The notes under the pieces: generated by a model
The model's database searches: none
The model's input: only the letters and a program-made list of their open reading frames with translations
Told to the model about the DNA's origin: nothing
Translations under genes and position numbers: made by a program
Source: Microbotryum violaceum
Lineage: Eukaryota
Assembly (NCBI GenBank): GCA_001244265.2
Contig: CDLV01000005.1
Span: 2,232,001 to 2,296,000 of the forward strand
Reading direction: 5' to 3'
DNA length: 64,000 nt
Shown: positions 42,481 through 61,377 of the stretch, in pieces
How positions within the stretch are numbered: position 1 is the first letter of the stretch
How the letters are laid out: every line of letters begins with the position of its first letter

Positions 42481-44321
42481 CTGCGGCGGGCAAACACTCG
42501 GCGCGCCGACGCCGACACACCCGACACCCGACGACGTCCGCGCCGCGCCGCGTCCCAACCGAACCACGAACTCCCGTCATCTATGCCGAACGTCCACCGC
42601 TGACGTGCTCGGCTCATCATCAACCACAGGCAAAACTTTTTCATTCTCAAATGCGATACTCAGAACGTCACCATGAAGGCCGGAGCTTGGGGTGTATGCA
42701 CAAAGCTGAGGGTTAGTCAATAGATTCGAACCGGACTCCGTCGTCACACGTGCCCTTTTGCCCACTAGGGATCGGACGACGTGTCAAAAGGGCGAGGACT
42801 GACACGGTGGCGCGTGTTCTACTAATACAGAACTCGACTGGAATTGTCGGTCCTATCGAATGGGTTAGTTGAGCACCGTGCCCCGACCGACCGCCGCATG
42901 CCCGAGATTGACCCTGGAAACTGTCTGGCTCGTGACCCTCGCTCCGCAGTGCACATCCAAGAAATCAGGCTACAGTCTCAACTTTGTCACCAACTCCTCA
43001 GGCGTCAACAACTGGGTCAGTGCTCAGCCGCGCATCTGACCGAGCCGTGAGAATTTCTGCGACTGAAAACTCCTCTCCACCACGTTCCCTCTCAGCCGAC
43101 TTTTTTGCAAAACCCCAACGTTTCGACCCCCACTCCCATCGATGAGAACGTCTTGCTCGGATTGGCTGGCAACGGAGGCGTCACCGTCTTGACCTCGGGC
43201 CAGACCAGCTTGATGTGGCTTCAAGTCGTCAGTGAGTGTCGCCTGCTCCACCGCTGACCTCCTCTTCGCACCGTCTCACCCGAATAATCGCCGCTCACGC
43301 CTTTCCTTGCCTGAACAGCTGCCATCTCGGTCGTTTCGACTGTTGCTTCGCTCGCCTGCCCGCCTTCCTACCTCGGCTCGCCCCAGTCGCGACTGTTTGC
43401 TTTCCAGAAATCGGGTATCCTCCCGATCCTGCTCGCGCTCATAACGTTCGTTCTGGCTGTCGTCACCTTCTTCGTTACCCTCTCCGTCTCGATGTCGGGG
43501 AGGAACCGATTGAACGCGATTGGCGGTGGTGTCAACGCCGGATTGGTCAGTCGACGGGATGCTCTTCCATGCGTGCAGAATTCTTTAATTGACCCTGTCC
43601 TCTCCCTTCCTTCGCTTTTCATCCAGGGCAACACCATCTGGTTCACACTAGCATCCAGCATCGTCATGATTCCTGCCATTTGCTCCGTGGTGCGTACTGG
43701 GCTCGTCATGGGCTCTACAGGTGTGAGATCACGTGAGCTGATATCCCCCCCGCCCGTCAGCTAATGCGTTCGTCGCCGAACGAGTACCAAGATCTAGTAG
43801 GTTGACCTACACGACAGGAGCATCTTTGATCATTCTGATTGACGATCTCATATATTCCCTTCGCAGTGATCGTTGCGTGAAAACTCCGCTCGGTTCGCGG
43901 CAAATCGTGTCGTATCGGTCTTGCCCGCGTCAAAGACCATCATCACATGGACATTTTCTTTCTGCTTCTCCCTTTTCTGGATTGCGTATTCCGCGCCTTC
44001 GCTCAGTGTCACCAGTAGATAGGATTCCCCGCAACGTCGTCCTTCTTCCATTCCGGGCTGGACTTTTCGACCCCATCGATTGGCGTAGATTTTCTGCATA
44101 CTCGTTCGCTTCTCTTTCTTTCTTTGTTTTTGAAGACAGTTCTTCCTTCCCTTACATTTTGCAAACGAACCCCTTGACGACATACAACACCCATACATTC
44201 CCCATGTTTTACCTGGTTGAAAGGCTCGCTGGGGGATGTAGGCCTGCGCTCTCGGTCGTGCTCTCTCACTCCTGCCGGTGTGATTTCGAGCTGAGCAAGT
44301 CGGCACGACCCAACGACGAAC

Positions 44322-45449
44322 ATGGCTTCGAAACGGGATTCGTCGGCGTCGTCGTCGATCCGTGACTCGCTCACGTCGGCCTCACGCTTCTCGTCGTTGC
44401 TATCGTCCTCATCAACGTCAAGTCTGACGACGATCAGCTCGTCTTCAACTGCGACGGCCGGAGGTGGGGGTGTCGTTCCCGGGGGTGGTTCATCGAGTAA
44501 CAACAACGGCGGCTCATCACGCGTCACTTCCATGTCGGGCACCCCAAGTAGTGGTGGTCTATCCTCCTTTGCGATCGGTCTTCCTTCCCTCCCCTCCGTC
44601 CCAGGTCTGGGCAGTTCGTCCTCTTCGAACGTCAATGGAACCAGCTCAAACGTAGGAGCTTACGGATCCAATGGTAGTCCCTTTACGGCGACTCGACGCA
44701 TGACGCTCATCTACGATCGACCTATCACCAAGACTCGAGGTAGCGAGATCAGTCTCGGCGCTTGGAGTTATTTGTTGGCCGAGATCGTGCAGTATACCCA
44801 GAAGCGGGTTAGCGGTATTGGCGAGTTTGAAAAGAGGCGAGTCCCCCCATTTTATGGTTTTATGGAGTTAAGATACCCAAAGACTTACGCGCAAGTTGAA
44901 ACTATATTCCAAAGACTGAATATCCTGGGTTACCGGATCGGCGTACGACTCCTCGAGCTCCTACCTCTACGCGATCATCTGTATCCCCTCTCCTCCTTGC
45001 GTTCATCACCGCCTCCGAGCCGAACGCTCCGACTGCTCCCGATCCTAACCTACGTCCACTCGATCGTCTATCGGTACCTATTCAACCGACCGGCCGATTC
45101 ATTGGAACGTTCAACTGAGAATAGCGACGAATACATGATCGGGGACAACGATATGGTGCTGACGAGGAACATCGAGGTGCCCAAGGAGATGAGCGAATTG
45201 AGTTGTGCGGCGTTGGTCGCCGGGATCATCGAAGCCGTTTTGGATGGCGCAGGTTTTGTGAGTTCCTAGGAGCGACGATGAAGGAACAAGAGGGGGGTTT
45301 GTACTGAGGTGGGAATTGGATTTGTTCAATAGCCGTCTAGGGTAACCGCTCATTCGGTGCCGACGTTGGCCCATCCGAGAAAGACGGTGATTTTGATCAA
45401 GCTCGCTCCCGAGGTCTTGAAGAGGGAAGCGGCGTTGGATGGCAAGTAG
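44322..45449 (+). CDS. TRS31: TRAPP complex subunit Trs31 (TRAPPC5)
   Basis: IYDRPITKTRGSEISL, EIVQYTQKRVSGIGEFEKRLNILGYRIG, LSCAALVAGIIEAVLDGAGFPSRVTAH, TVILIK. Introns 44837-44914 (GC-AG) and 45258-45332. Confidence 0.93.
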
Positions 45450-46643
45450 GGAAGAAGAACCTGTTTGTGTGTTTGTTTTTGTAACGAGTGTATGTAAGAA
45501 TTGGTTTGCGGAGAGCAGCGTTTCAATTCAGAGCGAAATTATTTCGTCGGACTCTTTGACAGGCGAAAATTATGTGAGACGGGGGAGGTCCGATTCGATA
45601 TGATACAACATCAAGGTGCAATTCCTACAAACGCTCGAAAAAGAAGTTTACTTTCGACCCCCGTCCTCGAAGGTGCTAATGATCCCCACTCGTGGACCTA
45701 TACTTGTCCGTCATGAGCTCCATTCCTCCAACGCCTCCTTCGTGGCGATTCAAATCCCACGCTTGTTCGGGCGCGGTCCCGTCGGCTGGGGATCCCTCAG
45801 AGGTGGTTTCGGCTAGACGGGCTCGGAGCGCGAGACGAGATTGTTGGGCTTGGTGGAGATAGATGGAGAGGGAGTGGCCGGTCATGAGGTAGCTGGAATG
45901 GGAAGGGAACGAGGAAGGAGGGAGGGGGTTTTAGTAGTTGCTGATTGCCTGTGCCTGTGCGGCAGGAGAAATGTCGACTCGCCCTACGCCTACTCCAGCA
46001 CTACATAGGTAAAAATGTTTCGCAGTTCAATTATGATGGTCAGACAAAAGTGTTCGGTGCGACGGTAGCTGAGTCGGAGCTTCGGTTTTGTGCTCAAGTG
46101 GGGGTTGACCGGTCCAACTCACATCAGTCCACTCAACAGACTGGCATTCCTTCCCTGCTTGAGCAGACGGGTCGAGATTTGACTCGCCAAGAAAGCGGCT
46201 GCTGCACCGGAAGCGATTCCCTTGTGGTGGGTTCAAAGTAGCACGCAATCATCAGCGGGTCGTGGGGCGGCTTGCGGAGCTGAGGTCAAGCTGAGGTCAG
46301 AACTTGGTGACGTACATCGATCTGAGCGCGACGGTTCGCATCGCCGATTTCGTCAAAACTGAGCTTGGCCGGGTCTTGAGTGGCGGGGGGAGGAGGAATT
46401 GTGCAAGTGGGCTCGTTTGTGGGGGTGGCCATGGTGCGAGTCTGGGATAGGGAAGGTGCAAGAGAGGAGGTCAGAGTGAATTAGCAGCGAGCGCGACCTG
46501 TATGGGGGCGGTCGTTAGCGGTCGTTGACTGTCGTTGATGGCGATCGCAGCCTGCAGCAGTGATATCGCAGCCGACGGGTGAGCGCGCGCTCAGCTCCGC
46601 TGCTCCGTCCCCACCACACGACCAAGCGGGGCAAGTGCAGCAG

Positions 46644-48312
46644 ATGTTGGCGCGATCAAGATCGACACTACAGCACCCACGATGCTCGCTCTGCGTCTCC
46701 ACCCCGCAACGAGCAGCGTACCATCCTTCGCTGCCTCGGTGCCAAAGGTGAGTCGACCGCCCCGCCGTGCGAAGCAGCAGCTCGTCGTCGCGGTCGCGGT
46801 CGGGAACTGACGCCAACTCCATCGTACTACAGGGATGATCATGATGGAGAACGTTCATCAAACTCACCTTATGTCTTTACAAAGTTGACCGACGCTTTAC
46901 CCTCCACGACGACCACCGAGACCTCCTCAACGACGTTACCGACCCCCACCACCCCGTCCGCCGCGGGCGCTTCCCCCTCGACCTCGAGCTCATCGTCGAC
47001 CTCTTCCTCGCTCTTCTCGTCCCCGCTGAACCGATTCCCGGTTCGATCGAGCGAGCTCTCGACGTCCAGAAGACCGCAACGCCAGACCCTCACTTCGACC
47101 GAAGCCGCCACTTTTGCCGACTTGCTCTCTCAGCTCCTGCCAACTTCGGCTACCAACTCGGCCGCCAGCGCGAAGGACAAGACCCAACCGGTTCCGTCTG
47201 CATCGGCTTCTTCAAAGTCGACTTCACCCTTTGCACCTTTTCTCGATCGAGCTCTGCCCAACAGCAGCGACCCAAAGACCGAGCGAGCTGGCCGTAGCGG
47301 CGGTTTGCAAGCCGTTCGGGATGCGCTCGATCGCAAGACGGCGAAAAGAATCGCCTCGTGGGAACGTCGAACTCGATCCTCGTTCGAAACGGGCGCGTCC
47401 TCGTCCGCGGGCTTGGGAGCGCTCTCGATACAAGAATACGATCGCTTCGATCAGATGAAGGAACAACTCGCGACGACGTGCTCGAACGAGTACGAGGTCT
47501 GGGCATGGGGCGAGGACAACGTCTGGGGACCTCAAGTTGTCGATTCGATCAGCTCGACCCCTCTGTACGCCCATCTCGTTTTGCTCGTCTTTACAACTTT
47601 GCGCGAGGAATACGACAGCCCTTTCACGGCCTTGCAAGTCTTTCACCGCGTATCAACCATCTCGCCCATCTCCTTCGTCCGAGGTTGTGGCGGGGATTTG
47701 TTCAACCAGGTCTTGGAAACGCAGTGGTTGTGCTCGCAGGGGGACATCGCGCTCGTCGCCAAGACGTTGGAAAGGATGCGCTCATCGGGCGTGTTGATGG
47801 ACCACCGCACGAGGGATTTCGTCGCTCGAATCGGGGAAGCGGTACGCATCGATGGCGAACGCGCCGAAGCGAGGGTCCAAACGGGCAAATTCAAAACGAC
47901 CGCAGCGAGTTTGACCCCCGTCGAACGCATCAACCTCGTAGACGAAATCATGGACGACGAGACCTACCTCATCGAACACAAGGCGAGGTACTTTGATGCG
48001 GCTAGGATCGAAGAATGGAACAAGATGGAACGCATCGTGGAGGAGAATTTGAAGGAGGTGGAGGAGAAGAGGAGAAGGGTCGAGGATGAGAAGTGGGACG
48101 CGAGGGAACGGTCGAGGATGAGGCATCAGGCGAGGGAGGTGGAGCAGGCTGAAAGGGAGAGGCCGAGTTTGGTCAATGCGATGGCGAGGGGGAGGGGGGA
48201 TGTGGGTGGGAAGGAGGAGGGGGGTTGGTCCGAACAGTTTTGGAACGGGGAGGTGGTCGGGGGGTGGCACAGAGGGAAGGCGCAACGACCTCCGAACAGG
48301 GGGCCGATTTGA
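46644..48312 (+). CDS. Mitochondrial Mtf2-like protein
   Basis: Arg/Ser-rich presequence exon, intron 46748-46832, then a PPR-like helical region (PFTALQVF..SPISFVRGC..FNQVLETQW..GDI..LERMRSSGV). Confidence 0.7.
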
Positions 48313-48501
48313 GATGAAATATGCTAGATCGTCTTTCGTCGAAGTTATGCACGCCTTTCCGGAGATGGAATAATCTTTTGGTTCTGCAGCTGGGAACCGC
48401 CTGGTTTGTGGTTCAAAGGGAGCCCTGAATCGGAATTGCACTGCTACAACAAGCAAAGACATTCATGATAGGTACACGAAAGACAATATCAAAACCCGCT
48501 C

Positions 48502-48984
48502 TCACAGGCCAAAGTCGATCCTGACACTCGATGCATCGGTCTTGCCCAAACGAAGCACGTAGCTCTTTTTGAGCCAAGCCATGCGGCTCCACGCCGTCGC
48601 CAAGCTCGATTTGGGGAGCAGCATGCTCGACAGGGTCGCACTGGCTGAGGAAGAGGGGGTGACGGATGTATTCGACGTTGAAGATTCGACGAGTTCTTGG
48701 GTTGCGTTCGTCATGCAGGTCGTCATGTTGCTCGGGAGGGTCGTGTTGGACATCAAGGAAGGCAGGGGACTGAACACGTCCCCGGCGTTCATCGAGAGCC
48801 AGCAACGGCAATGCTCAATCATCGACCGACCGTTCGCAGCCGTCGTATAGGTCGTTCCCAAATTAATAAAACAACTCGCCATGACTGTGGCACATGTAAG
48901 GCAGCAAGGAAAACTTGAGTCAGCCAAATGTGCGGTCGGTAAAAGGCTCAGTATCGTCGCCGTCAATCGGACCTTCCGAGACAT
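48502..48984 (-). CDS. Hypothetical protein or gene remnant (Cys- and Ser/Thr-rich)
   Basis: 160-aa open frame. Upstream exon-like pieces contain stops and an 18-bp tandem duplication (49168-49203). Confidence 0.25.
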   Translation of the reverse strand: MSRKVRLTATILSLLPTAHLADSSFPCCLTCATVMASCFINLGTTYTTAANGRSMIEHCRCWLSMNAGDVFSPLPSLMSNTTLPSNMTTCMTNATQELVESSTSNTSVTPSSSASATLSSMLLPKSSLATAWSRMAWLKKSYVLRLGKTDASSVRIDFGL

Positions 48985-50328
48985 GCACGGGGGTCAAGCA
49001 TTTGACTCACACAGCGCAACGAGTAGGGCGGTACAGTAGACGCAGGTTCTATTCGCAGCCATCATCGATACGAGGTACAGGAGCTGCCATAGTGGTGAGG
49101 CCGTCGGGAACGGCAGCAGCGGCAGGAAGGCCCAATATCGCAGACCTACGAAAGCGGCCCATGAGATCACCGGAGTTGATGTTAGCACCGGAGTTGATGT
49201 TAGTCGGTGCCGAGTCCATATGCAAGGGGTACTAGAGCGAAACGAGGGCTTACACCACATTGAAAAGTAAGATCCCCGTGCTGACGGACCAGATCGCAAT
49301 CAGACACCGTCGATGGGGAAAGATTACTTGGAGACGGGGCACGTGATTCAAACGGGCGTGGGGAGAGACATACCGCCTTTTGTATGGGCCGCCTTGTGTC
49401 GTTTTATTCGAGTTGAACACACGCGCGCAAGATTCGCTGATCACGCGATCATGCATGACACGCACGCGGCTGCTTGATGATGTGCACGCTCGACCATGCA
49501 CGCGGCCCGTGCTTCGCCTTCATCGTCCTCATTCTCATCCGACAACGCTGTATGAGACTATCCGACTTCGGGCTCATCAACCATAGATGGTCATAAGAAT
49601 GATCGCCACAACAAGTGTGCCGGCTGCGACGCAATCATCAGGTGTGCCGGTGGCTTAGCTGAGTGAGCTCGTACGAAGCAGTTGCTGCCGACCATCTCGG
49701 ATTCGACTCGTTCAAGCTGCAATAATCCGTGTGAGTAGCCGCTCACAACTACAGCCCCGCCCTCAATCATCACTGGTCGCTTATTGTGCTATGTCGCAAG
49801 CATTATATTCATCCGTGTGATTTTTCCCAAGAAACCCAGTGACGCTCAGGCTGCGATGCATCTCTCGGAGTACTGCTGAGATTGCGCGCTCTAGGGTCTT
49901 TAACCTAGCCTAGACATGCTACTAGACATGCTACTGTTTTGATTCGTACGTGCGGCATTATATTTGCTGCACCTGCTGCCAGCTTAGGAAGCCACAGTCC
50001 ACCCGCGCATCCGCGCACCGAGCATACCCGGGTGCACACGCCCTCCCATGCCGGCGTATTTCATTTAGGAGAGCCGCTCGGGGCTGGTTCAGCTCCTTTG
50101 TTGCGACACACCGGCCGGAAATCGCACCAGTCCTCGCAAAAGTGGCAGAGAGAAAGAGAAAACCCCTCAGCAAAGTTCCCCTCTCGCATCTTTCCCTCCC
50201 GCACCTCTCTCCCCGCCCATCACTAGCAAAGTCGCCAGTATCCCAACCGCTTCCTCCACCATCATGAATCAGCCTGACTCAGGTCCGCCTGTCGAATTGC
50301 AAGATCCTTCAAATGGATCATCGCAGGT

Positions 50329-51653
50329 CACGCCTTGTAAGATCGCCGCTGCTGTTCTTGGCGAAATTGTCCCTGCGTTTGACATTTCGCTCATGCCCAC
50401 GTCTTGTGCACTTTTCAGGCCAAAGCGGCTCCAATGTTCTGCATCCGCCAACAATCACCGGTCCTGTCGTCTCCCAGCACCCGTAAAACGCATACGTCAA
50501 TCAGCCTGTCGCATTCCATTATTCCCACCAACCGCACCTGTTCCCAACGCCGCCCCAGGCGTTCCCGCCTTATCATTCGATGCTTCACCACCAGCCCACG
50601 TCTCATTACCCGCCGTCCCATCCTCTCCACAACCACACATACTTTTCCGCTTCGTTCGCACCAATCCAGCCCCCTTTCGTGCCTGTCTCATGGCTCTCTG
50701 GACGACATCTACGCCTCGGTCGAGCGCTGCAACACTGAATCACAAGTCAAAAGGCGAATCAGGGATAGAGCTCCTACTGTGCTGTGGGGACTTCCAGGTC
50801 AGTGTCGATTAATTGCCATTCGATGCATGTGACGGAACGGCTTCTCCGTTTCATCCACGGGTCCTCTGCAATACTTTGAACACCCCGTCAGAGCCTCGAC
50901 CGGTCACCCGCTATGTCAAACCCGACGATCTTTCAACCGTATGGCTACCCTCTGGGAAGCCAGTCTTCCGCTGCTGCGACTACTTCTGAGGTTCCATCGG
51001 CAAACCCGTTCACCATCGGTGCGCCTCCTCCGCAAGTTCAAGCTCGTGCATTGATTCCTGGACAGGACGGTTCCTTGCCTACTGCTGCGCTTACTCCTCA
51101 CGTCACCTCTGTGCCAACCTCTACTGTGGCATCTACGTCGACCACCCGCTCCCCAACCGACGCGCCGGCCACTGCCGTCTGACCGTGCACAATTCTGAAG
51201 ACCAGCAGCTCGTATTTGCCTTCACTGCCGATCAGCAGCAACCCACGATCGGCCGAGCACAAAGTCACTTCGGGGATCTCGCTGTTCGTTTCCGCGCGCC
51301 TTCGGGGGTGGACTGGATTGGTGCGAACGAAGCGGAAAAGTATGTGTGGTTGTGGAGAGGATGGGACGGCGGGTAATGAGACGTGGGCTGGTGGTGAAGC
51401 ATCGAATGATAAGGCGGGAACGCCTGGGGCGGCGTTGGGAACAGGTGCGGTTGGTGGGAATAATGGAATGCGACAGGCTGATTGACGTATGCGTTGTACG
51501 GGTGCTGGGAGACGACAGGACCGGTGATTGTTGGCGGATGCAGAACATTGGGGCCGCTTTGGCCTGACAAGTGCACAAGACGTGGGCATGAGCGAAATGT
51601 CAAACGCAGGGACAATTTCGCCAAGAACAGCAGCGGCGATCTTACAAGGCGTG
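50329..51653. repeat. 341-bp inverted repeat (arms 50329-50669 and 51313-51653, 643-bp spacer)
   Basis: The arms align as reverse complements with 3 mismatches by eye; the ORF track shows mirrored peptides. Confidence 0.97.
50686..50803 (+). pseudogene. DBR1: Captured N-terminal exon fragment of lariat debranching enzyme DBR1
   Basis: SHGSLDDIYASVERC...(one extra A)...GIELLLCCGDFQ followed by a GTCAGT donor, matching the Dbr1 GCxHGxLDxIY...LLLxCGDFQ pattern. Confidence 0.8.
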
Positions 51654-51963
51654 GCCGCAGTAGTCAGGCGTGCTACGAAGACGGTACGCGACGACACGCC
51701 AAAAAACGAGCCCTCGATCCTTCTAATCGCCAACGAACCTTTTAACCCTCTTTGATGAAAGTTCCAACGCAGATACCCGACACCGTGTTCAAGCCGAGAT
51801 TTCGGATTCGTTGATGCAGTACTAATAGATTCGGTGGGAATCAAGATTCAGCCAACGCCCTGGCAAGCGCGCAACACTCGGGTGCAACCGTCGGTTTGAA
51901 ATTTGGTCGACTCCCTTGTGCATGAAATCGAAAGGAGCTTAGGCGAAGAACTTTCTTGAAGAC

Positions 51964-52027
51964 CACCTTACCGTCACCTTACCGTCACCTTACCGTCATC
52001 TGACCGTCATCTTACCGTCACCTTACC
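51964..52027. repeat. 11-bp tandem repeat (caccttaccgt, about 6 copies)
   Basis: Direct reading; lies at the probable 5' edge of the LINE-like element. Confidence 0.9.
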
Positions 52028-52434
52028 TTAAGTTAACGTCAACCCACGTCACCTCCGTCAACAACGTTAACAAATGCACATCCCGCGCCACGTCACACGT
52101 GTTCTCGCAGTCTGTGCGTCCGTATCGACAACGCCCCCGCCTCCGACACCCATTGGGCCACCCGCCAGTTCAGGAATCCATATACAACAGCATTCGATCG
52201 TTCCTAAAGTAATCGAATGGTCGTTCTCTCACACATGGTTGCAAGCCATGGTGCCTTCCCACCCCCATTGCCGATCTAGGCAACGCGGCGATGGAGGCTC
52301 CCATACGGATGGTGTAGACAGAACCTCCTCTAGAAATGACGAGTGCTATCTCTCTCCAGCTTATGACCTAGAGCTCACTCGCCCTCTCTTCAAGCACATG
52401 TACCTCTTCCTACATCCCTACCTGCATTACACAC

Positions 52435-52627
52435 CCATGCTAGCCTCCAAGCCGCTCCTCCTAACCCGACGAGCCTCGCACGGACGCTATGCTTCCCACC
52501 ATATCTACCTATCTTACTACTCTGAAAACCCCCCCATATATCACCACCTGTTTTGCAAAACCATGCTAGCCTCCAAGCCGCTACTCCTAATCCGACGAGC
52601 CTCGCACGGACGCAATGCTTCCCACCA
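52435..52627 (+). repeat. 67-bp direct repeat (52435-52501 and 52561-52627)
   Basis: ccatgctagcctccaagccgct...atgcttcccacca twice with 3 mismatches. Confidence 0.9.
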
Positions 52628-53488
52628 ACTACCGAACTCCGCAACCAACCCACTAACTCAGCCCTATGACCTCAGCAATCCTCATCTCCCTTACACTTGG
52701 ACTCCGATCGAATTCCTCACAGTGATATGTTACACCCCACTTCTCATCGTAACGACCCGGGGAAGGAGCCAATACCGGATACTGTTCTTTGCGCCCGTAA
52801 AAGGACAGGATAGGAAACCCCCTCTCACTCGCCTGTAAAACATGTGAACACCTTTATCGATCCGCAACATATGAGAATGACGAACTATTGCAACGAATTG
52901 TTGCAATCCGCCCCTGTCCTCCGCACGCTTTCAATGAACACTTACTCTTCCGCTGACCTTCGCTGGCCCAATACTCTGCCTGATACTACCATGCACTTAC
53001 TCGACACCTACAATACTTCCTCGACACCTACGATACTTCCATCTGAGGAATGCCAACTTCCCCATCCAATGCCAAACCTGAGACCTGTTACAATTCACTC
53101 CTGTCTCTTCTAACCCCATACTCTGCGCTAGGCCCAATGTTTATGTCCCGGCGGATTTTAAAGCCGACTTGCCTGAGAAGACTTACTCCTGTCAGATCCC
53201 GAACTCGAGAACGCCATACCAACAACCGATCACGCCATCATGCGGAAGTGACTTGGTTCCGACATTCACGCACTTTTCCGGAATACAATCCAACCTAGTC
53301 ATTCAGAACGCCAACCCCATTTTACATCAACAACGACTGGCCAACAATGCTTCGACACCAACCGAAGCCAACATCACGAATAACTCGCCGACGAGAGAAG
53401 GCGATGAATCTGGAGGCTCGCCCAGTAAGCGTGGACGTCTCACCACGCACGAGGCGTCGATGGGGAAGGGAGTCTTGTTTCAAGTGTC

Positions 53489-56400
53489 ATGGGGACAGAA
53501 CGTCGTGTCGAGGAAGGAATGTCTATTGTCAGTACCCAAACAAAATTCCCATTCTCTTCTCGAACTTTGTCTGATGAGGTGCTGCTTATGGCCGCAGGAC
53601 CCATAAACGAAGACATCGAACCCCGAAAACAAAATCACATTCATTTTCTCCATACACTCAGCACATATTTTCTTCTTGCAATAACAATCAATTTTCACAG
53701 TACATCAGCCCCGACAAGAAGTATCATCCTCCTCCTCATCCTTGTGTTGGATAAAAATTGTGTTAACGCAGCAACTCCGATCTCTATCGCAAGCCTCAAC
53801 GTGAATGGACTTGCAGACCCCGTGAAGCTCCAACAAGTGCAACAAACCTTAATCAACTCAGACTACCATGTCGTCAGTCTAAATGAGCTCAAGTTCCGAA
53901 CGGACACACGGCTACCGGTTGACTTGATCGCTTTTCAGCCGATCCTTACACCCTCCGTCCGGGCTGGCTCGGGAATGAAATGGGGAACCCTCCTTCTAGT
54001 CCGCAATAACCTGCCGATACTAAACTCCTTCACATTCACCGAAGGACCACTGGTAGGACGAGTCGCCGCCGCTGATATACTCGTACAAACAAGGGAAGGC
54101 ACAGATATGGTCCCAATTCGTATCGTGTCCGCCTACTGCCCACACGGAGGTTATGCGCGCAAGACAGAAAATGATGACAACGCCATCACGGGTTTCTGGA
54201 CCGCTATGCAAGACCTCATACGAACCGGCCCACCAAATTGGGCGGTAGTAGGTGATTTCAATGCAGTACTTGACGCTCGGGAAACAGCCGCAACTAATTT
54301 TCCGCAACTCCGACCAACTGCGCTCGAATACTGCCGTTTCCTACGTCAAACCGATGGCCACGATGTGTGGAACGAGTTGGAATCACTGGCGCTCGCTGAA
54401 AGTTGGACACACAAGCTCTACGGGAACGCGCAAACCACGAGCGTCATAGACCGGCTTGCGACTTCCGTAACGACAGGGAATGCGGACATCGAGGCTTTAC
54501 GCCCAATTGTGGCCACTGACCACAGGCCAATTAGATGCAGGTTATGGTTTCCAGGGCTCTGCGTCGTAACTGACGAAGTAGGCGACGATGGACCGAGAAG
54601 AATAACAGTTCAGCCGAGGGGTAGCGATACTCGGCCAAGATTCACGAAAGACATGGAAGACGGCGTTGCCAATGTACAGTGTTTAAGGGAAATATCGGAA
54701 GACGCGGTTGTAACTTCACAGGAAGTTTGGGACACTGCCTATAAAGAGTTCTCTGCTACTGGTCGATACTTCTCTGAAGGTGTTCGGCGAGAGGTGGGGC
54801 CCAACAATGAACAAACGCCAGCTCGTCGGATCCCCCGAATTGCGAGAAATGATTCAGGACCGTTATCATATGAACCGGTACATATATGCCCTCAATACTA
54901 TTTCTATCCACATCCTCAAACACAGGCAGGACGTACAGAGATGGTTCAACGGAGGCTTTAGCAATGCAACACGACAACGTCTACAACAAGATAGAGGACA
55001 CACTGGTTGGTATCCGCCCGAAGGCGCAGTCCTGGAGACAGCGATGGTCTGGCATCGACAACTCTGCAAAAGGATACATGCTCAGGAGAAGCGGGAACGC
55101 AAAGAGTTGACACAACGGACTGACAATCTCCGAATCCAGAGTGTCATTAATGGGGGATCTGTAAAGAGGATCCTCATGCCGCGGACAACACTGGTTCAGC
55201 CACGAGCGTTTGAAACTGCGGGGGGAACTACTACCGCGGAGCCAACAGAAGTACGTACCACCTTCAGGCAATATTTCAGCACTTTATTCAAAAAGACCGA
55301 CGAACAACCAGTGACGGCTAAGCCGTGGATGAACTCAGAAAGCTCCCGACGCTTCCGTAATACAACACAGCAGGACCAATTCGAGTGGCCTAAGCCCCTG
55401 ACACTCGGCGACCTCCGAACGCTGCTCAGTAGAGGAAATCGGGAGCCATCCCCCGGGCCGGATCGATGGGAGAAATGGACCGTGGCAATTCTGGGAGACC
55501 GAACTATGTCCGTGGTCCTGGCCCTTTTGAACTATGTGCTGGTGAATAACTACTTTGATAAGCTGCGTGACCACTATCTCCTTCCGATGTTCAAAAATTG
55601 GGGTCTCTCCACCCAATTGAGCAACTACCGGGCGGTTGTTTTGGAAATTTCCTTGCGGTTATGGCGGCTGCATGGTTCACACGTCAAGCACAGGCTTATG
55701 CAATGAAACATCACATGATACCAGAGACACAGGTCGCGGTACAAAGCGGCGTACAGCAGCGGGATCTCACGAGCTTCCTTGCGCAACTCGAAGCATGGGC
55801 TGTTCGAGCAAAGACCCCTATTTACGGCCTTATTCGAGATCAAAAGAAGGGTTTTGATCTGCTGCGGGCAGAAGCCGGATACGACGCTTACGAATTTTTC
55901 GGCTTTGGACCGAACGCGGAGGCTTTTGACCGAGCGCGGTTAGCACACGGCTCGTTCATGATGAAGACACCATATGGCCTGACCTAAGATGGAATGTGGA
56001 ACGCTATGTATCTGGCACTGAGGACACTTATGTCAGAACCGTTGCGAGAGCGAACGGAGTAAGACTAAGGAGAAAAGTGTCACTCAGGCGCAGACCAATC
56101 TAAACAAGCTAATAGATTGTAAGGCCAGGGCAAGATTTGTGAGGTGATAATATCTTCCGTTTAGCAAATAAGAATTAGAATGATGAGATCAAACCTAATC
56201 GTAGTAGAAACTCTTCAGACTCTTAACCAATAACTGTGACATGACCGACCCCTTTGAAGTGGACGGACGAATGTCACAAAGGCGATCCACCAAACCCGTT
56301 CAGGTTCTCACTTGCGATGGCCATGGGCTCCTACTGGTTGGACGAGCAAGTCTACGATGACCCTCTTCTCATCCCAACGCAAAATGGAGCACGGCGGCGC

Positions 56401-58700
56401 GCGCACACAAAGGCCGGCGAGCTTACCCTCAGACTCACACAGGTAGCCGAAATGGACGACACAATTCTGCTAGCGAAGAGTGAAACTAGGCTAGCTACTA
56501 TGACGCTCTACATGGAGCTATTCCAAGAGGCGTATGGAGCTCAAACGGACTGGGGTACGAAAACTCGAGCTATTATTTTGGGAGAAACTGACTCACTGGT
56601 TGCGCCAACAGAAAGGGTGACGGTCAACACTCCTCACGGAGAACGACAGGTTGCTGTCGACCTGGCACATGTCTTCCTCAAAACGCCGTTTGCAGCACCA
56701 GATCGACAATATACCCAGCTGGAGAGTATTGTGCGCTCGGTTTGGTTTCCTAGCACATCGACTAGGAGGCTTCCGCGCTCAGCACTGCGACGGTTTATAG
56801 AGCAACAAGTAATTAACAGGTTGAGGCCAAGGCTAGCATTGTGCCCAATTTGACCGGAGGATGCGCTCAGACTTGATCAAATAGTCGCGCAGCGGATAAA
56901 GGAGTATTATGGATGGGTCTTCACACCAACGGCAAAGTTGGTTACCTTGCCGGTCGCCAAGTTTGGATTTGAGCTTACTAGCCTATGGCGACTAAACGGG
57001 GCACTGGCGGTTGACGGATTATTACGGGACCTCAATCATCACATTCCGGCGTTTGAAACGATGGCCAAGATCACGCTGGCCGATCTCCAATGCCGACCCC
57101 ATGGCTGCATTTCTCCTTTCATTGACCCCAAGCCCCTGTCCTTTCCGCACTCGCAACGAAAGGTCCCCCAGACGTGGAACACGGCTCTTAGTGCTTTACA
57201 ACAATGCGGGAAGCTGCAAGTGCTGGAGACCGACCAATCAAGCGGTCTTACCTCGATGTTCAGTGCGGAGCATGCATACCTTCAGACAGGAGGGGCTCGG
57301 CGAAATGAACCACAGTTACGGCGGGCAGTGGCGGCGCTTCCAGCTCGGCTTACAGATATACGGGAGCTCAAGAAAGGACCGCGGAGAGATCTACCGGACC
57401 TTTTCACCGATTGGCTAGACCCCAATACCAGATTGGTGCGGCAGTGGTCGGAACGCTTTGACGAACTGACTTTGGCCGAGGGACCAGTCCAACTCCTGCG
57501 AAGCAGAGCCGAGCGGAAAACTGAAGTCGAAGATCAGCTTCGGGGTGTAGTTCTTCCCATACTTAAAATGAGACAAGCGCAGGCCCAAGTCATTTGGGCG
57601 ACAGATGGCTCACTTATTGTCCTGCCCACGGGATTCGCTTCCGCGGCCGCAGCAGTTGTAGGACCGAATTGGGAAGCCCGGGCAGCTATGTTCGCGGGCG
57701 CGTCAATTATGCAAGCGGAAGTGACAGCCCTGATTATTGCAGCACTGACTATACAATCACATAATTTCGGGGCTACTACACCAATTCCGGTTCTCGCAGA
57801 TCATCTGACATCGGTCAGATTTGCCGAGAAGATCAGACAGGGCGATGTTGCACCGAAGAAACCGAGGGTTGCGTTTGCACACTACACATGGCTCGAACGT
57901 TTGCTCGCAACGAACCACACGATCGAAATCCAACATGTGAAAGCTCATACGGGACGAACAGACGACGCATTGCGTGCAAACGAAAGGGCGGATGAAGCGG
58001 CTAAGAAGGGACATTCACAGCCTGACCTCATTGTGCCTTTCCCCGACTTCGCTCTCCCGCAGTGGACGATCGCTAGAATGACCGCCAACAACATCGAATG
58101 GCTGGAAGGCGATATCAGCAAGAAGATTTACGACCTTCAAGAAGACTGGCAGCTGAAGTCGTTGCCGAAGAAGACAGGCGACAGTGTTCGACTCCTATTG
58201 AATGTTGGACATTCAGCGGGGCAGTACCCATATCTTCGCGCAGTGTCAACGTATGCCGCACAGACACAGCTCCAAATGCGGGCACATGTTCTGCCCACTG
58301 CTTCGCGATGTTCAGAGAGACTGGGGACCTCCCCGGAGTGTGTGATATGTGGAGCAGAGGAAGAAACAGAGAAACACGCGTTTGGAGAGTGCCCATCGGG
58401 ACAAGAACTTCGCGACAAAATTGGTCAGGAACTGTATCGGGCTACGCGAAGCAAACTCGAGGCACGGCAACAAGGATGACTGGCCTGCAGATACAGGAGC
58501 TATGTACCTTTGCCGCCAAACTGGTGAGGGCACATTTGTGGTGATTTGCGATGCAAACCGGATATCTACTGGACTCTAGACGAGCGATCGCGGACGCGGC
58601 TGGACCGGGCATGGCATCATGAGCTGATCAAAGGGGCTGGGAGAATTTGGGGCGGCCGCATGCGAAAGTGGTGGACATTACAACAGAATATGGAGTAGCA
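53489..58700 (+). mobile_element. Decayed non-LTR retrotransposon (LINE-like) ORF2: APE endonuclease - RT - RNase H - CCHC finger; 5' UTR/ORF1 remnant probably extends to about 52.0 kb
   Basis: APE: SLNVNGL, SLNELK, VSAYCP, GDFNAV, IDRL, TDHRPI. RT: SPGPD, NYRAV, RDQKKGFD, QGDP, EMDD. RNase H: ATDGS, AEVTAL, ADH, HVKAH, NERADEAAK. Finger: CVICGAEEETEKHAFGEC. Several frameshifts and a TGA at 56851. Confidence 0.93.
55985..56241 (-). mobile_element. 257-bp solo-LTR-like insertion with 5-bp target-site duplication (TGACC)
   Basis: TGACC at 55980-55984 and 56242-56246. Removing the insert restores YGLTDPFEVDG. The minus strand starts TGTCACAG; AT-rich. Confidence 0.8.
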
Positions 58701-58914
58701 TACCTCACTGGTGGAGGCGATAGTGGCAAGCTTGCCCCATCTACCCTCAGGAGCCGGGAGCCGAGGGGGAGGAGGGAAAACTGGTGTAAACCCTGAGAAA
58801 TGGGGGCATCAGTCCTAATCCCAGCGAGGCGATGGCCCGTATACAATATGGGTGTATGATATGACATGTTATGGTGGTCCAGCGGATCTAGCGTTTGTTA
58901 GATTCTGTCTTTGA

Positions 58915-59495
58915 ATAAGACTAGCTGGAATTTATGACTTTAAACTTTGAACTTGAGAAGCGTGTGGGGCACAAACGGAGGGGAGCAAAAAGACGAAGAA
59001 TTATCTGCTGAATGAGACTCCTGAACACCTCGTCGATGCGAGTGCAATAAAAGGGCGCCTGTTGAGATGGACACAGACGCTCTGTGGAAGCTAAAGAAGC
59101 CAAGGGCAGATGCTTCGAGGGTAATTGACACGCCATACGGGCCACGAGAAGTGTGGGTAGTTCAAGGACTCGTTTCTGCGCACAACGAGTCCCTTGATCA
59201 CGACTGTCAAGTCCGCTCTATGAAAGCATCAGGAATCTGATCATCTGCGTAGGAATCTCCCCCCAAAACGGCTCCCAATGACAGCAGTGATACGATACAT
59301 TGAATAAGCGGTCATCATCACAGTTAGTGACAATGGAACAAGCGGGGAAGCTGAATAGCTTCATCGTGGTCAGATCCATCAGTATTTCAACGCACCCCTT
59401 AAGCCAAGCACACAATTGCTTAGGTTGTCGATTGCGGAATCTGAGCTAGGTCCCACAAGCATATGGAGATTCAACGCAAGCCTAGGCGTCTCGGT
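58915..59495 (+). mobile_element. Second, older fragment of the same LINE family (post-RT region)
   Basis: Broken frames give EACGAQTEGSKKT, IDTPYGPREV, KRLPMTAVIRYIE and PTSIWRFNASLGV, collinear with EAYGAQTDWGTKT, VNTPHGERQV, RRLPRSALRRFIE and LTSLWRLNGALAV of the first copy. Confidence 0.75.
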
Positions 59496-60760
59496 CTAGT
59501 ACTTGAGCACATTTCGACCCAGGTGAGTCTGCAGCGAGGACTGGTCGAGGAGACGATGAGCTTCCGCGTGTCGATCGTAGCCGACCAAGATCAGAGGAAC
59601 GCCTTTGGGATCATGTTTGTCACGTCTGTGAGCTGGTACGGTGAGCCAGGCCCGACACTCGAAGACTCTGAGGGGAGCCATGGCCGGGTTCAGCCTGACC
59701 AGCGATGGTTGCGGATTTCGCCGCGCAGAACTGCGTGGGGGGAGATTCTTGGTGTGGATGCAGCACATGGCAGCCTCATCCCAGCAAGGGCATGGAAGAC
59801 AAGCGTGAAGGAGCGCTAGAGTGTCTCCCACAATCGACAAATTGAGTCGCTCGGCCCGACCATTCTGCTCGGTTGTGTGAGGGATGGTCATCTCGCGTTT
59901 GATGCCGCGCGCCACGCAAAAGCCATTGAAGGACGAAGAGACGTATTCACCACCATTGTCCGAGCGAAGGGTTTTCACTCGTCGACCCATGGCGTTTTCC
60001 ACCTTCAGCAGTCAGTCCTTGAGCGCCTGAAAGACGTCGCTGCCTTCGTCGAGGACTGCAAACTCACGGAGCACAACTACATTGACTGGGACCTCAACAT
60101 ATCCCTCACTGTCGCTCGCGAATTTTCCTTTGCGCAAGTACGCACAGACTTCACGAGCAACAGTGAGGGGCATGGTGAGGTCCCAGTCAGTGTAGTTGTG
60201 CTCCGTGAGTTTGCAGTCCTTGGCGAAGGCAGCAGGGGCGTTCGGTGGCAAGAGGTGGCGAAGCGTGGGAGCGTCTTCGTAGCGGACACGTTGAATCTGT
60301 ACCAGAACTTCATACTCAGCGCGTGGGAGTACGATTGAGCCGATGTGTGAGGTGTCGTCGTTACGGCCCGGCGTTGATGGCGGTGCAGGGGGTGCCAGTA
60401 CCGGTCATCATCGGCCACGTTGTTGAGGTCTGCCGCTGGTAGGTCGTTGGGCTTATGATCTATTAGAACTCTGTGGGCCTAGACACGAGATACGTAAGTA
60501 TGAGAGCCGAAGATGATAGATAAGATAGTTGGACAGGAAGAAGAAAGGTCATGGAAACGCGCGCGAGCAAGGCTCAAGGTGCGAGAGGCCGCGAATATCT
60601 ATTACATCTCTAGTAAATAATCATGATGGGGGATCTTGGTGTTTCTAGGAGGGGCCACTCAGTATAACGGGTGGTGGACCGGGGGCGAAAGGGTACAAGT
60701 AGGCCCAAATAGCGATCGGGCTACTTGTTCGCACAATTGAGGTCGAGAGCGCTTTCAACA
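59496..60760 (-). mobile_element. Internally deleted Ty1/copia LTR retrotransposon remnant (5' LTR, PBS, gag start, integrase core and SH3)
   Basis: Putative LTR 60760-60461 (TGTTGAAA...TTCTAATA); PBS-like GATCATAAGCCC resembling copia GGTTATGAGCCC; gag-like [13 protein letters not shown]; integrase [38 protein letters not shown]. Confidence 0.88.
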
Positions 60761-61377
60761 GAATGGCCCCTTTTTGGAGGCTAGCCGGAATGTGGAATTT
60801 TCATTCTCATGTTGGGACGCTTTGGGGCGGAGAGAGGGGGGTTTGGTGTCCTTTCCTTTTCGTTAAACCTCTCTCCCCTTCTTCGCTTTGCTCACTTTGC
60901 TCACTTCTATCCTTCTTCCTCAAGAGACGTTTCTCGTTATCACAACTTCCCTCGGATCGATCGCTCAGGGCCCTCTTTCAATTTTGGGTGGAAACAGGAA
61001 CCCTCAAACGTCAAACGCCGAACACCTTGGACAGCCTTCGGGCGCGCCTCGAGCCGTCCGCGAGATCCGGACGGTCGCCCTGGGCTAGTCCGTCGTCTCC
61101 TGCTGCCCAGTCTAATCTAATCCACTTCACCAGGGTCGTTGATGCTTGCGCACTGACGCCTCGTTCAGCTGCCGGCAGTCATTCTTTCCCCTCCTTTACT
61201 TCTACATCATATCGACGACCTTGGACAAAGCCCACTCGAGCGCGATCGATCCGCTCCCCCGTCCGTCCCCCACGCTGTGTCTCCTCTCTTGGTGTGGTGC
61301 CCTCTACATCATCAATTTCGAGTCGACGACCGGGCCAGGCCGCCATTTGCGCGTCGGGAAATTGAAGCTCGATTCGA

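Follow-up and report, generated by a model that had tools for sequence, protein, structure and literature searches.

A DBR1 fragment inside a foldback of Microbotryum violaceum: most likely a neutral scar of DNA repair, with arms that are probably older than they look

In the closest published accounts, the templated insertions that form when yeast and human cells repair breaks are mostly 50-300 bp long, carry 0-20 nt of microhomology and arise by copy-paste (PMC11724301). Foldback inversions are described there and in PMC10622511 as having inverted microhomology at the turn, a reverse copy and a join to unrelated DNA. Inverted repeats of Caenorhabditis (PMC1803023) and palindromes of Y chromosomes (PMC3723533) have arms that resemble each other more closely inside one species than they resemble their counterparts in another. 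A locus in the genome of Microbotryum violaceum shares features with each of these. It resembles the templated insertions in size range, intact donor, short microhomology and genomic source, but it is a natural germ-line event, is found in at least two fungal lineages and lies near the base of an inverted repeat, and its repair pathway is not readable from sequence. It has the turn, the reverse copy and the join of a foldback inversion, with ~345 bp copied as against up to ~150 bp in the yeast assay, and a loop of ~500 bp. Its arms are likewise more alike within than between lineages but, unlike those of worms and Y chromosomes, they hold no paired genes, lie in decayed repeat DNA and are known from two short-read contig sets. 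The locus adds another case to what known processes of repair produce. Our literature search found no report on it or on foldback conversion in Microbotryum; most subscription papers and bioRxiv supplements lay outside its scope.

The locus lies in a window of 64,000 nucleotides (G000:C3:2232001-2296000), and our searches covered the 33-Mb, 20-contig assembly to which it belongs. The left arm of the foldback (50329..50669, forward strand) and the right arm (51313..51653, reverse strand) are complementary at 338 of 341 bases in a direct arm-to-arm comparison, the three mismatches being 50414/51568, 50430/51552 and 50486/51496; a repeat search of the window returned inverted arms of 347 nt at 99%. 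The description of 341-bp arms about 99% identical, given by a first-pass annotation of this DNA, is therefore accurate, as is its statement that target-site duplications (TSDs) are absent: the flanks at the arm ends, 50320-50328 and 51654-51662, have no common direct repeat. At 50484-50486 the left arm reads a stop and the right arm and the paralog described below read a tyrosine codon, which hints at dead coding sequence, and one frame through the arm encodes a His/Pro/Gln-rich peptide. A coding signal relative to the paralog was not significant, with 27 of 58 substitutions at the third position of one frame (chi-square ~5.2, 2 df, hand calculation).

Both the left arm and the loop belong to a decayed host block of at least 1.4 kb (49910..51309, forward strand), of a family that we did not recognise and that is probably transposon debris. 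The only further copy found, copy counts from our searches being lower bounds, is on contig C10 (G000:C10:36815-38255, ~82%). This paralog is ~82% identical to 50020-50685 and 50852-51309, and 89% identical to 49910-49990. It is collinear over arm and loop, has a single arm and lacks the DBR1 piece. Since C10 has one arm only, the right arm is the inverted duplicate, joined at 51309, and the left arm the original, collinear copy; the template of the duplication extended over ~50325-50672, and the right arm reaches 51657 in comparison with C10. Homology to C10 runs past the arm on both sides, outwards over 49910-50328 and inwards over 50833-51309, and the arm is thus an inner part of the block rather than a terminal repeat. 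At 54 of 341 sites both arms carry the same non-C10 letter, so that duplication or homogenisation came later than the split from C10. Within 50325-50672 the left arm carries the derived letter at five of six arm differences, too few for an inference on polarity. Beyond the right arm, a spacer (51658..51958) is not homologous to the continuation of the block on C10, and its positions 51728-51816 are 79% identical to C3:2360163-2360249.

The nature of the block was sought in several ways. Its frames gave no Pfam match, none of 12 frames of the C10 continuation passed the curated cut-off, no homologs were found for the right-arm frame among 49 candidates or for the left frame among 66, an atlas search for the block gave no usable match, and Rfam gave none on 48000-61000. 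A match on C11 (E 0.5) was treated as chance, and a sigma-70 promoter scan was set aside as not applicable to a fungus. Upstream of the block, 49382-49787 is a repeated element, 81-84% identical to C16:181449-183210.

A single real arm, duplicated by the assembler, had been raised as an artefact that could account for the structure. The foldback is not an assembly artefact. In 19 of 24 runs, half or more of the words sampled from 49900-52000 are present, and contigs of four runs (X1, X19, X20 and X22) were placed on 44001-51340. Contigs of run X1 bridge the left outer edge (49561-50358), the passage from arm to DBR1 (50640-50807) and that from DBR1 through host sequence into the right arm (50778-51340), and a loose end at 50329 is the flank beyond the right arm. 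X1 is possibly close to the source sample and thus does not count as independent support. Run X19, from a separate study, has both inner junctions, its arm-to-DBR1 contig holding 30 letters on the DBR1 side, one below our bridging rule. The foldback junction itself (51304..51312), where five consecutive G can base-pair with the five C at 50670-50674, is bridged by contigs of X1, X19 and X22. Contigs in which the arms have collapsed, such as X1 record 6, where letters of both arms are mixed, do not allow arm identity to be read for other strains.

Just inside the left arm lies a piece of DBR1 (50686-50832), 147 bp long and 97.3% identical to G000:C12:1220423-1220568 (E 1.9e-63). It comprises part of exon 1 (50686..50797, forward strand, codons 9-45, without codons 1-8) and the first 35 nt of intron 1 with the GT donor GTCAGT (50798..50832, forward strand). 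It differs from its donor by one extra A near 50749, which causes a +1 frameshift, and by substitutions at 50759, 50808 and 50809. The reported Dbr1 N-terminus and attached GTCAGT donor are thus present, in a piece of 147 bp rather than ~115 bp, and the extra A splits the peptide quoted for it across two frames. With codons 1-8 missing and the frame shifted, the piece cannot yield Dbr1 enzyme. The C12 donor is the true DBR1 and the sole DBR1 gene found: a profile search of the genome's contigs placed PF05011 above cut-off at this one locus, homologs of the donor carry the name lariat debranching enzyme, and the predicted protein P0001 uses exactly the same splice donor. Its 211-aa exon matches a Microbotryum protein at a rounded 100% and an M. 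intermedium protein at 57%, which identifies the organism as an anther smut; a PDB sequence search with DBR1 exon 1 gave no match. The expectation that the fragment would match the genome's own DBR1 is in this way confirmed. Separately, a 32-bp match links the DNA 150-185 bp before the start codon of DBR1 to G000:C14:122284-122315, which belongs to an arm of an inverted repeat (42 bp) and is probably a small repeat end.

At 50685 the host sequence reads through in C10 with 0-1 bp lost, and the block resumes at 50833 (50833..51309, forward strand, the rest of the loop), although this near-empty site is an 82% paralog and not a true allele. The insertion has no TSD and no poly(A), at most 2-3 bp of imperfect microhomology, and a donor that is still in place. 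With 35 nt of intron retained, a spliced mRNA cannot have been the template. LINE-mediated retrocopying was rejected on the kept intron and the lack of poly(A) and TSD; copying of unspliced pre-mRNA is compatible with these observations. Most likely, as far as the sequence can tell, DNA repair copied the DBR1 piece into the locus.

A gene fragment with retained intron sequence, flanked by long inverted arms, gives the locus the superficial layout of a Pack-type DNA transposon, with the arms as terminal inverted repeats and the DBR1 piece as part of the cargo, and Pack-MULE-type capture with siRNA cross-talk to donor genes (10.1101/777037) likewise places intron-bearing gene fragments in repeat-like DNA. 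That account is hardly credible here. The arm is internal to a longer block, the one other locus found is one-armed, and we found no TSD and no family with the same ends (copy counts being lower bounds), which rules the Pack-type reading out at the sensitivity of the searches used. In contrast to Pack-MULEs, the locus has no family of terminal inverted repeats and no second cargo-bearing copy was found; the sole further copy, that on C10, is free of cargo, so the search for copies with different cargo that had been proposed came back empty. Of the earlier proposal of capture at the DNA level rather than by retrocopying, the exclusion of spliced mRNA and the fit to template switching or repair stand, the Pack-type variant fails, and unspliced pre-mRNA is compatible as a source. 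The one-off rearrangement that had been offered as an equal alternative fits best when joined with that template-switch or repair origin.

The earlier description of the foldback as young is not supported. Run X22 differs from the window flank at 158 letters over ~2,840 (~5.6%), and it has the junction from host sequence to right arm, with 45 host-side bases. The contig concerned (record 28, 444 bp) has depth 24, equal to the flank depth and therefore single-copy, and runs from 50365 to 50215 reversed, then through 51265-51339, then along the arm from 50637 to 50441. A 75-base piece spans the junction with 3 other letters and 1 gap, and the X22 arm differs from that of the window at 17 of 197 bases. 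If the arms had diverged freely since the split from X22, 19-29 differences in 341 would be expected, and 3 are seen (Poisson P 9e-6 and 8e-10). Arms that differ from each other at 3/341 and from their ortholog at 17/197, with a junction shared in this one contig, are what arm-to-arm conversion would produce. In this comparison the X22 and X19 differences and loose ends are among those listed, and arms are collapsed or missing in the contigs. X22 also has a rearrangement of its own, the reversed 50215-50365 joined to 51265, so that the locus was rearranged more than once, and it omits 380 bases between 49485 and 49866.

Run X19 points the same way from closer by. Its flank shows 16 differences in 5,553 bases, and its contig over 50587-50715 shows 5, among those listed 50663, 50665 and 50671, a cluster for which P is 1e-5 to 2e-3 on the assumption that the 99 bases outside DBR1 hold all 5. 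The window arms are identical at these sites, and the X19 arms part at ~50617. The X19 letter at 50663 is that of C10; 50665 and 50671 differ from C10 too and so are not plainly ancestral. The simplest reading of these letters is that the left arm of the window was overwritten there from the right arm. Taken from the two runs, the arms are probably kept alike by arm-to-arm gene conversion, and the foldback is probably not young, the X22 support for its age being a single contig of one run.

One may ask whether the foldback is truly young after all, the X22 junction having arisen independently at the same G/C microhomology, with no conversion needed. The 5-bp microhomology at the junction would be common to both lineages, the block is foldback-prone, with four inverted duplications at C10, and the X22 loop is arranged differently (joint 50215-51265). 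However, the 75-base X22 piece crosses the junction with just those 3 other letters and 1 gap, and the cluster of X19 differences at the inner end of the left arm would be left unexplained, and we consider independent origin decidedly improbable.

We therefore propose, with somewhat better than even confidence in the whole, a scenario of three ordinary processes acting on decayed repeat DNA. First, a break near 51309 would have left a single-stranded end that annealed back to 50670-50674 through the 5-base G/C match; ~345 bases would then have been copied in reverse and joined to unrelated DNA, a series that offers a mechanism for a structure we observe directly. Second, gene conversion between the arms would have overwritten their differences, as the two runs suggest, and this gives the arms an apparent age far below that of the junction. 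Third, repair of a break at 50685, at a distance of 16 bp from where the stem ends on its inner side, would have copied in 147 bp of genomic DBR1 as a templated insertion of the copy-paste kind. We observe an intact donor and a clean insertion; the mechanism, and its being a separate second event, are what we infer from them.

The nearness of the insertion to the end of the stem (32 of 496 loop positions, or ~6% by chance in a hand estimate) makes a break at the stem-loop boundary plausible, with weak support. What caused the break near 51309 may be guessed at: one of the inverted duplications at C10 starts 24 bp beyond the 51309-equivalent point, and a hairpin at that point could have been responsible. 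A point against breakage at the stem is that in yeast (PMC10164571) repeats set far apart are much less prone to breakage while the DNA is double-stranded, though they pair well when single-stranded.

The order of the first and third steps is less firmly drawn. X22 is without cover over 50638-50685 and 50833-51264, which we do not read as absence; as most of the loop lacks cover, the missing DBR1 piece in X22 says nothing on the order of the two. Over its 147 bp the piece differs from its donor by 3 substitutions and 1 insertion, against ~4-6 expected on its own lineage since the split (hand estimate), and hence the divergence of the piece does not date the capture as later. The piece is nearer to the DBR1 of the window genome (3 substitutions, 1 gap) than to that of X22 (6 and 1), which leans weakly towards capture after the split.

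These same figures bear on a rival history, in which one MMBIR/FoSTeS-like event made both the insertion and the inverted duplication before the X22 split, X22 later lost its loop, and conversion keeps the arms alike. On its inner side the duplicated segment ends at 50672, 13 bp from the insertion point at 50685, the divergence of piece and donor (4/147) fits that age, and the microhomologies at the junctions are short. Against this, a single event requires four switches at sites 480 bp apart, and the greater closeness of the piece to the window DBR1 than to that of X22 is a weak lean to post-split capture. We hold this history to be unlikely and keep two separate events, with conversion between the arms, as the preferred reading.

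Does the locus do anything? An RNA read through it is predicted to fold into a stem of 339 arm-arm pairs, and the genome encodes a Dicer dimerisation domain (C7:919596-919886) and a Piwi domain (C3:1899538-1900579); a partial second Piwi match lies at G000:C3:1926534-1927007, 26 kb from the full Argonaute. In M. lychnidis-dioicae a full RNAi set, with RdRP, Dicer and two Argonautes, is reported to be expressed (PMC4469406). Processing of the hairpin is therefore possible in principle, and reaching DBR1 would need spreading into the loop. A selected hairpin-RNA locus could be imagined, in which siRNAs from the arms and RdRP spreading into the loop dampen DBR1 and hence retrotransposition, and the persistence of the structure across lineages would agree with it, as would the predicted stem and the RNAi machinery. 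On the other side, the DBR1 piece lies in the loop with 0 of its 147 nt paired with the arms, the predicted fold of the loop does not surpass that of shuffled sequence (z 1.34), the X22 loop is rearranged, and conversion requires no selection. As the only other match found for the stem is the decayed C10 copy, siRNAs from the stem would be without a known active target.

Selection for a hairpin RNA at this locus is for these reasons very improbable, and the same low probability attaches to the bolder form of the idea, in which the locus is a working hairpin source whose RdRP-dependent secondary siRNAs would lower DBR1 as a self-targeting retroelement defence built from repair scars. Mu killer of maize is similarly an inverted duplication of repeat DNA that would give hairpin RNA if read through, but here our searches brought up no active element that matches the stem. 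Run X20 was rejected as expression evidence, as its being RNA is a guess and it is of low depth and covering intergenic DNA, and so was an X20 contig that leads from the arm into a longer stretch of DBR1 intron, as it may be a low-depth chimera. Most likely the locus is a neutral scar that makes no protein.

A link between the DBR1 piece and the neighbouring retroelements had also been suggested. The neighbour is a multi-copy, broken non-LTR retroelement (51959..58957, forward strand) with endonuclease, zf-RVT and RNase H; Pfam detected no RT domain in its pieces. It begins ~300 bp beyond the right arm, and its copies on C1 and C6 match solely from 51959/51987 onward, so that the foldback is not the 5' end of the retroelement and the two are independent. 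The only LTR-type DNA nearby is a broken integrase-bearing fragment at ~59.5-60.4 kb, and the Dbr1 link to retrotransposition concerns Ty1, an LTR element (PMC6039765). As the adjacent element starts beyond the foldback and is non-LTR, whereas the Dbr1 link is to Ty1, the proposed connection finds no footing here.

Within this retroelement, an insert of ~260 bp (55982-56243) with many copies elsewhere (83-97%) interrupts the sequence, and at 53285 the element is without ~1.8 kb relative to the C1 copy, a gap common to the C6 copy. Inside the integrase-bearing LTR-element fragment, 60039-60233 is an inverted repeat with 84-bp arms, copies of which on C3, C13 and C15 match in both orientations, so that the inverted repeat may be a family feature.

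Foldbacks occur frequently in the repeat DNA of this genome. In a repeat-biased sample of 167 kb, 5 of 17 sequences contain 12 distinct inverted repeats of at least 80 bp, and the C10 copy of the host block has four inverted duplications for neighbours in a stretch of 7.6 kb (G000:C10:29152-36791). These comprise hairpins of ~530, 170 and 100 bp and a pair of ~400-bp arms (86% gapped), which enclose long ORFs that by eye resemble an L1-type LINE. The first 10 kb of C10 hold three more long foldbacks (L012 166-736, 6803-7532 and 8262-9415), one of them with 366-bp arms at 96%. A repeat of another kind, at G000:C3:175104-198618, is a tandem array with five equal-scoring copies of a 228-bp repeat at ~5.82-kb spacing. 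We raise, tentatively, the possibility that in the repeat DNA of Microbotryum a cycle of mutation recurs, made up of foldback, conversion and ectopic capture, which would keep yielding candidate hairpin loci.

What the locus offers in the first place is a clear natural break-repair insertion, with the donor and a near-empty site both identified. Its main addition is evidence that the arms of such structures can far predate the age implied by their identity. Arm identity of 99% need not mean that a foldback is young, and other foldbacks dated young in this genome may be misdated. Were hairpin RNA from the locus to reach DBR1, a host gene would be silenced via a repair scar, and the role of Dbr1 in basidiomycete retrotransposition would become testable.
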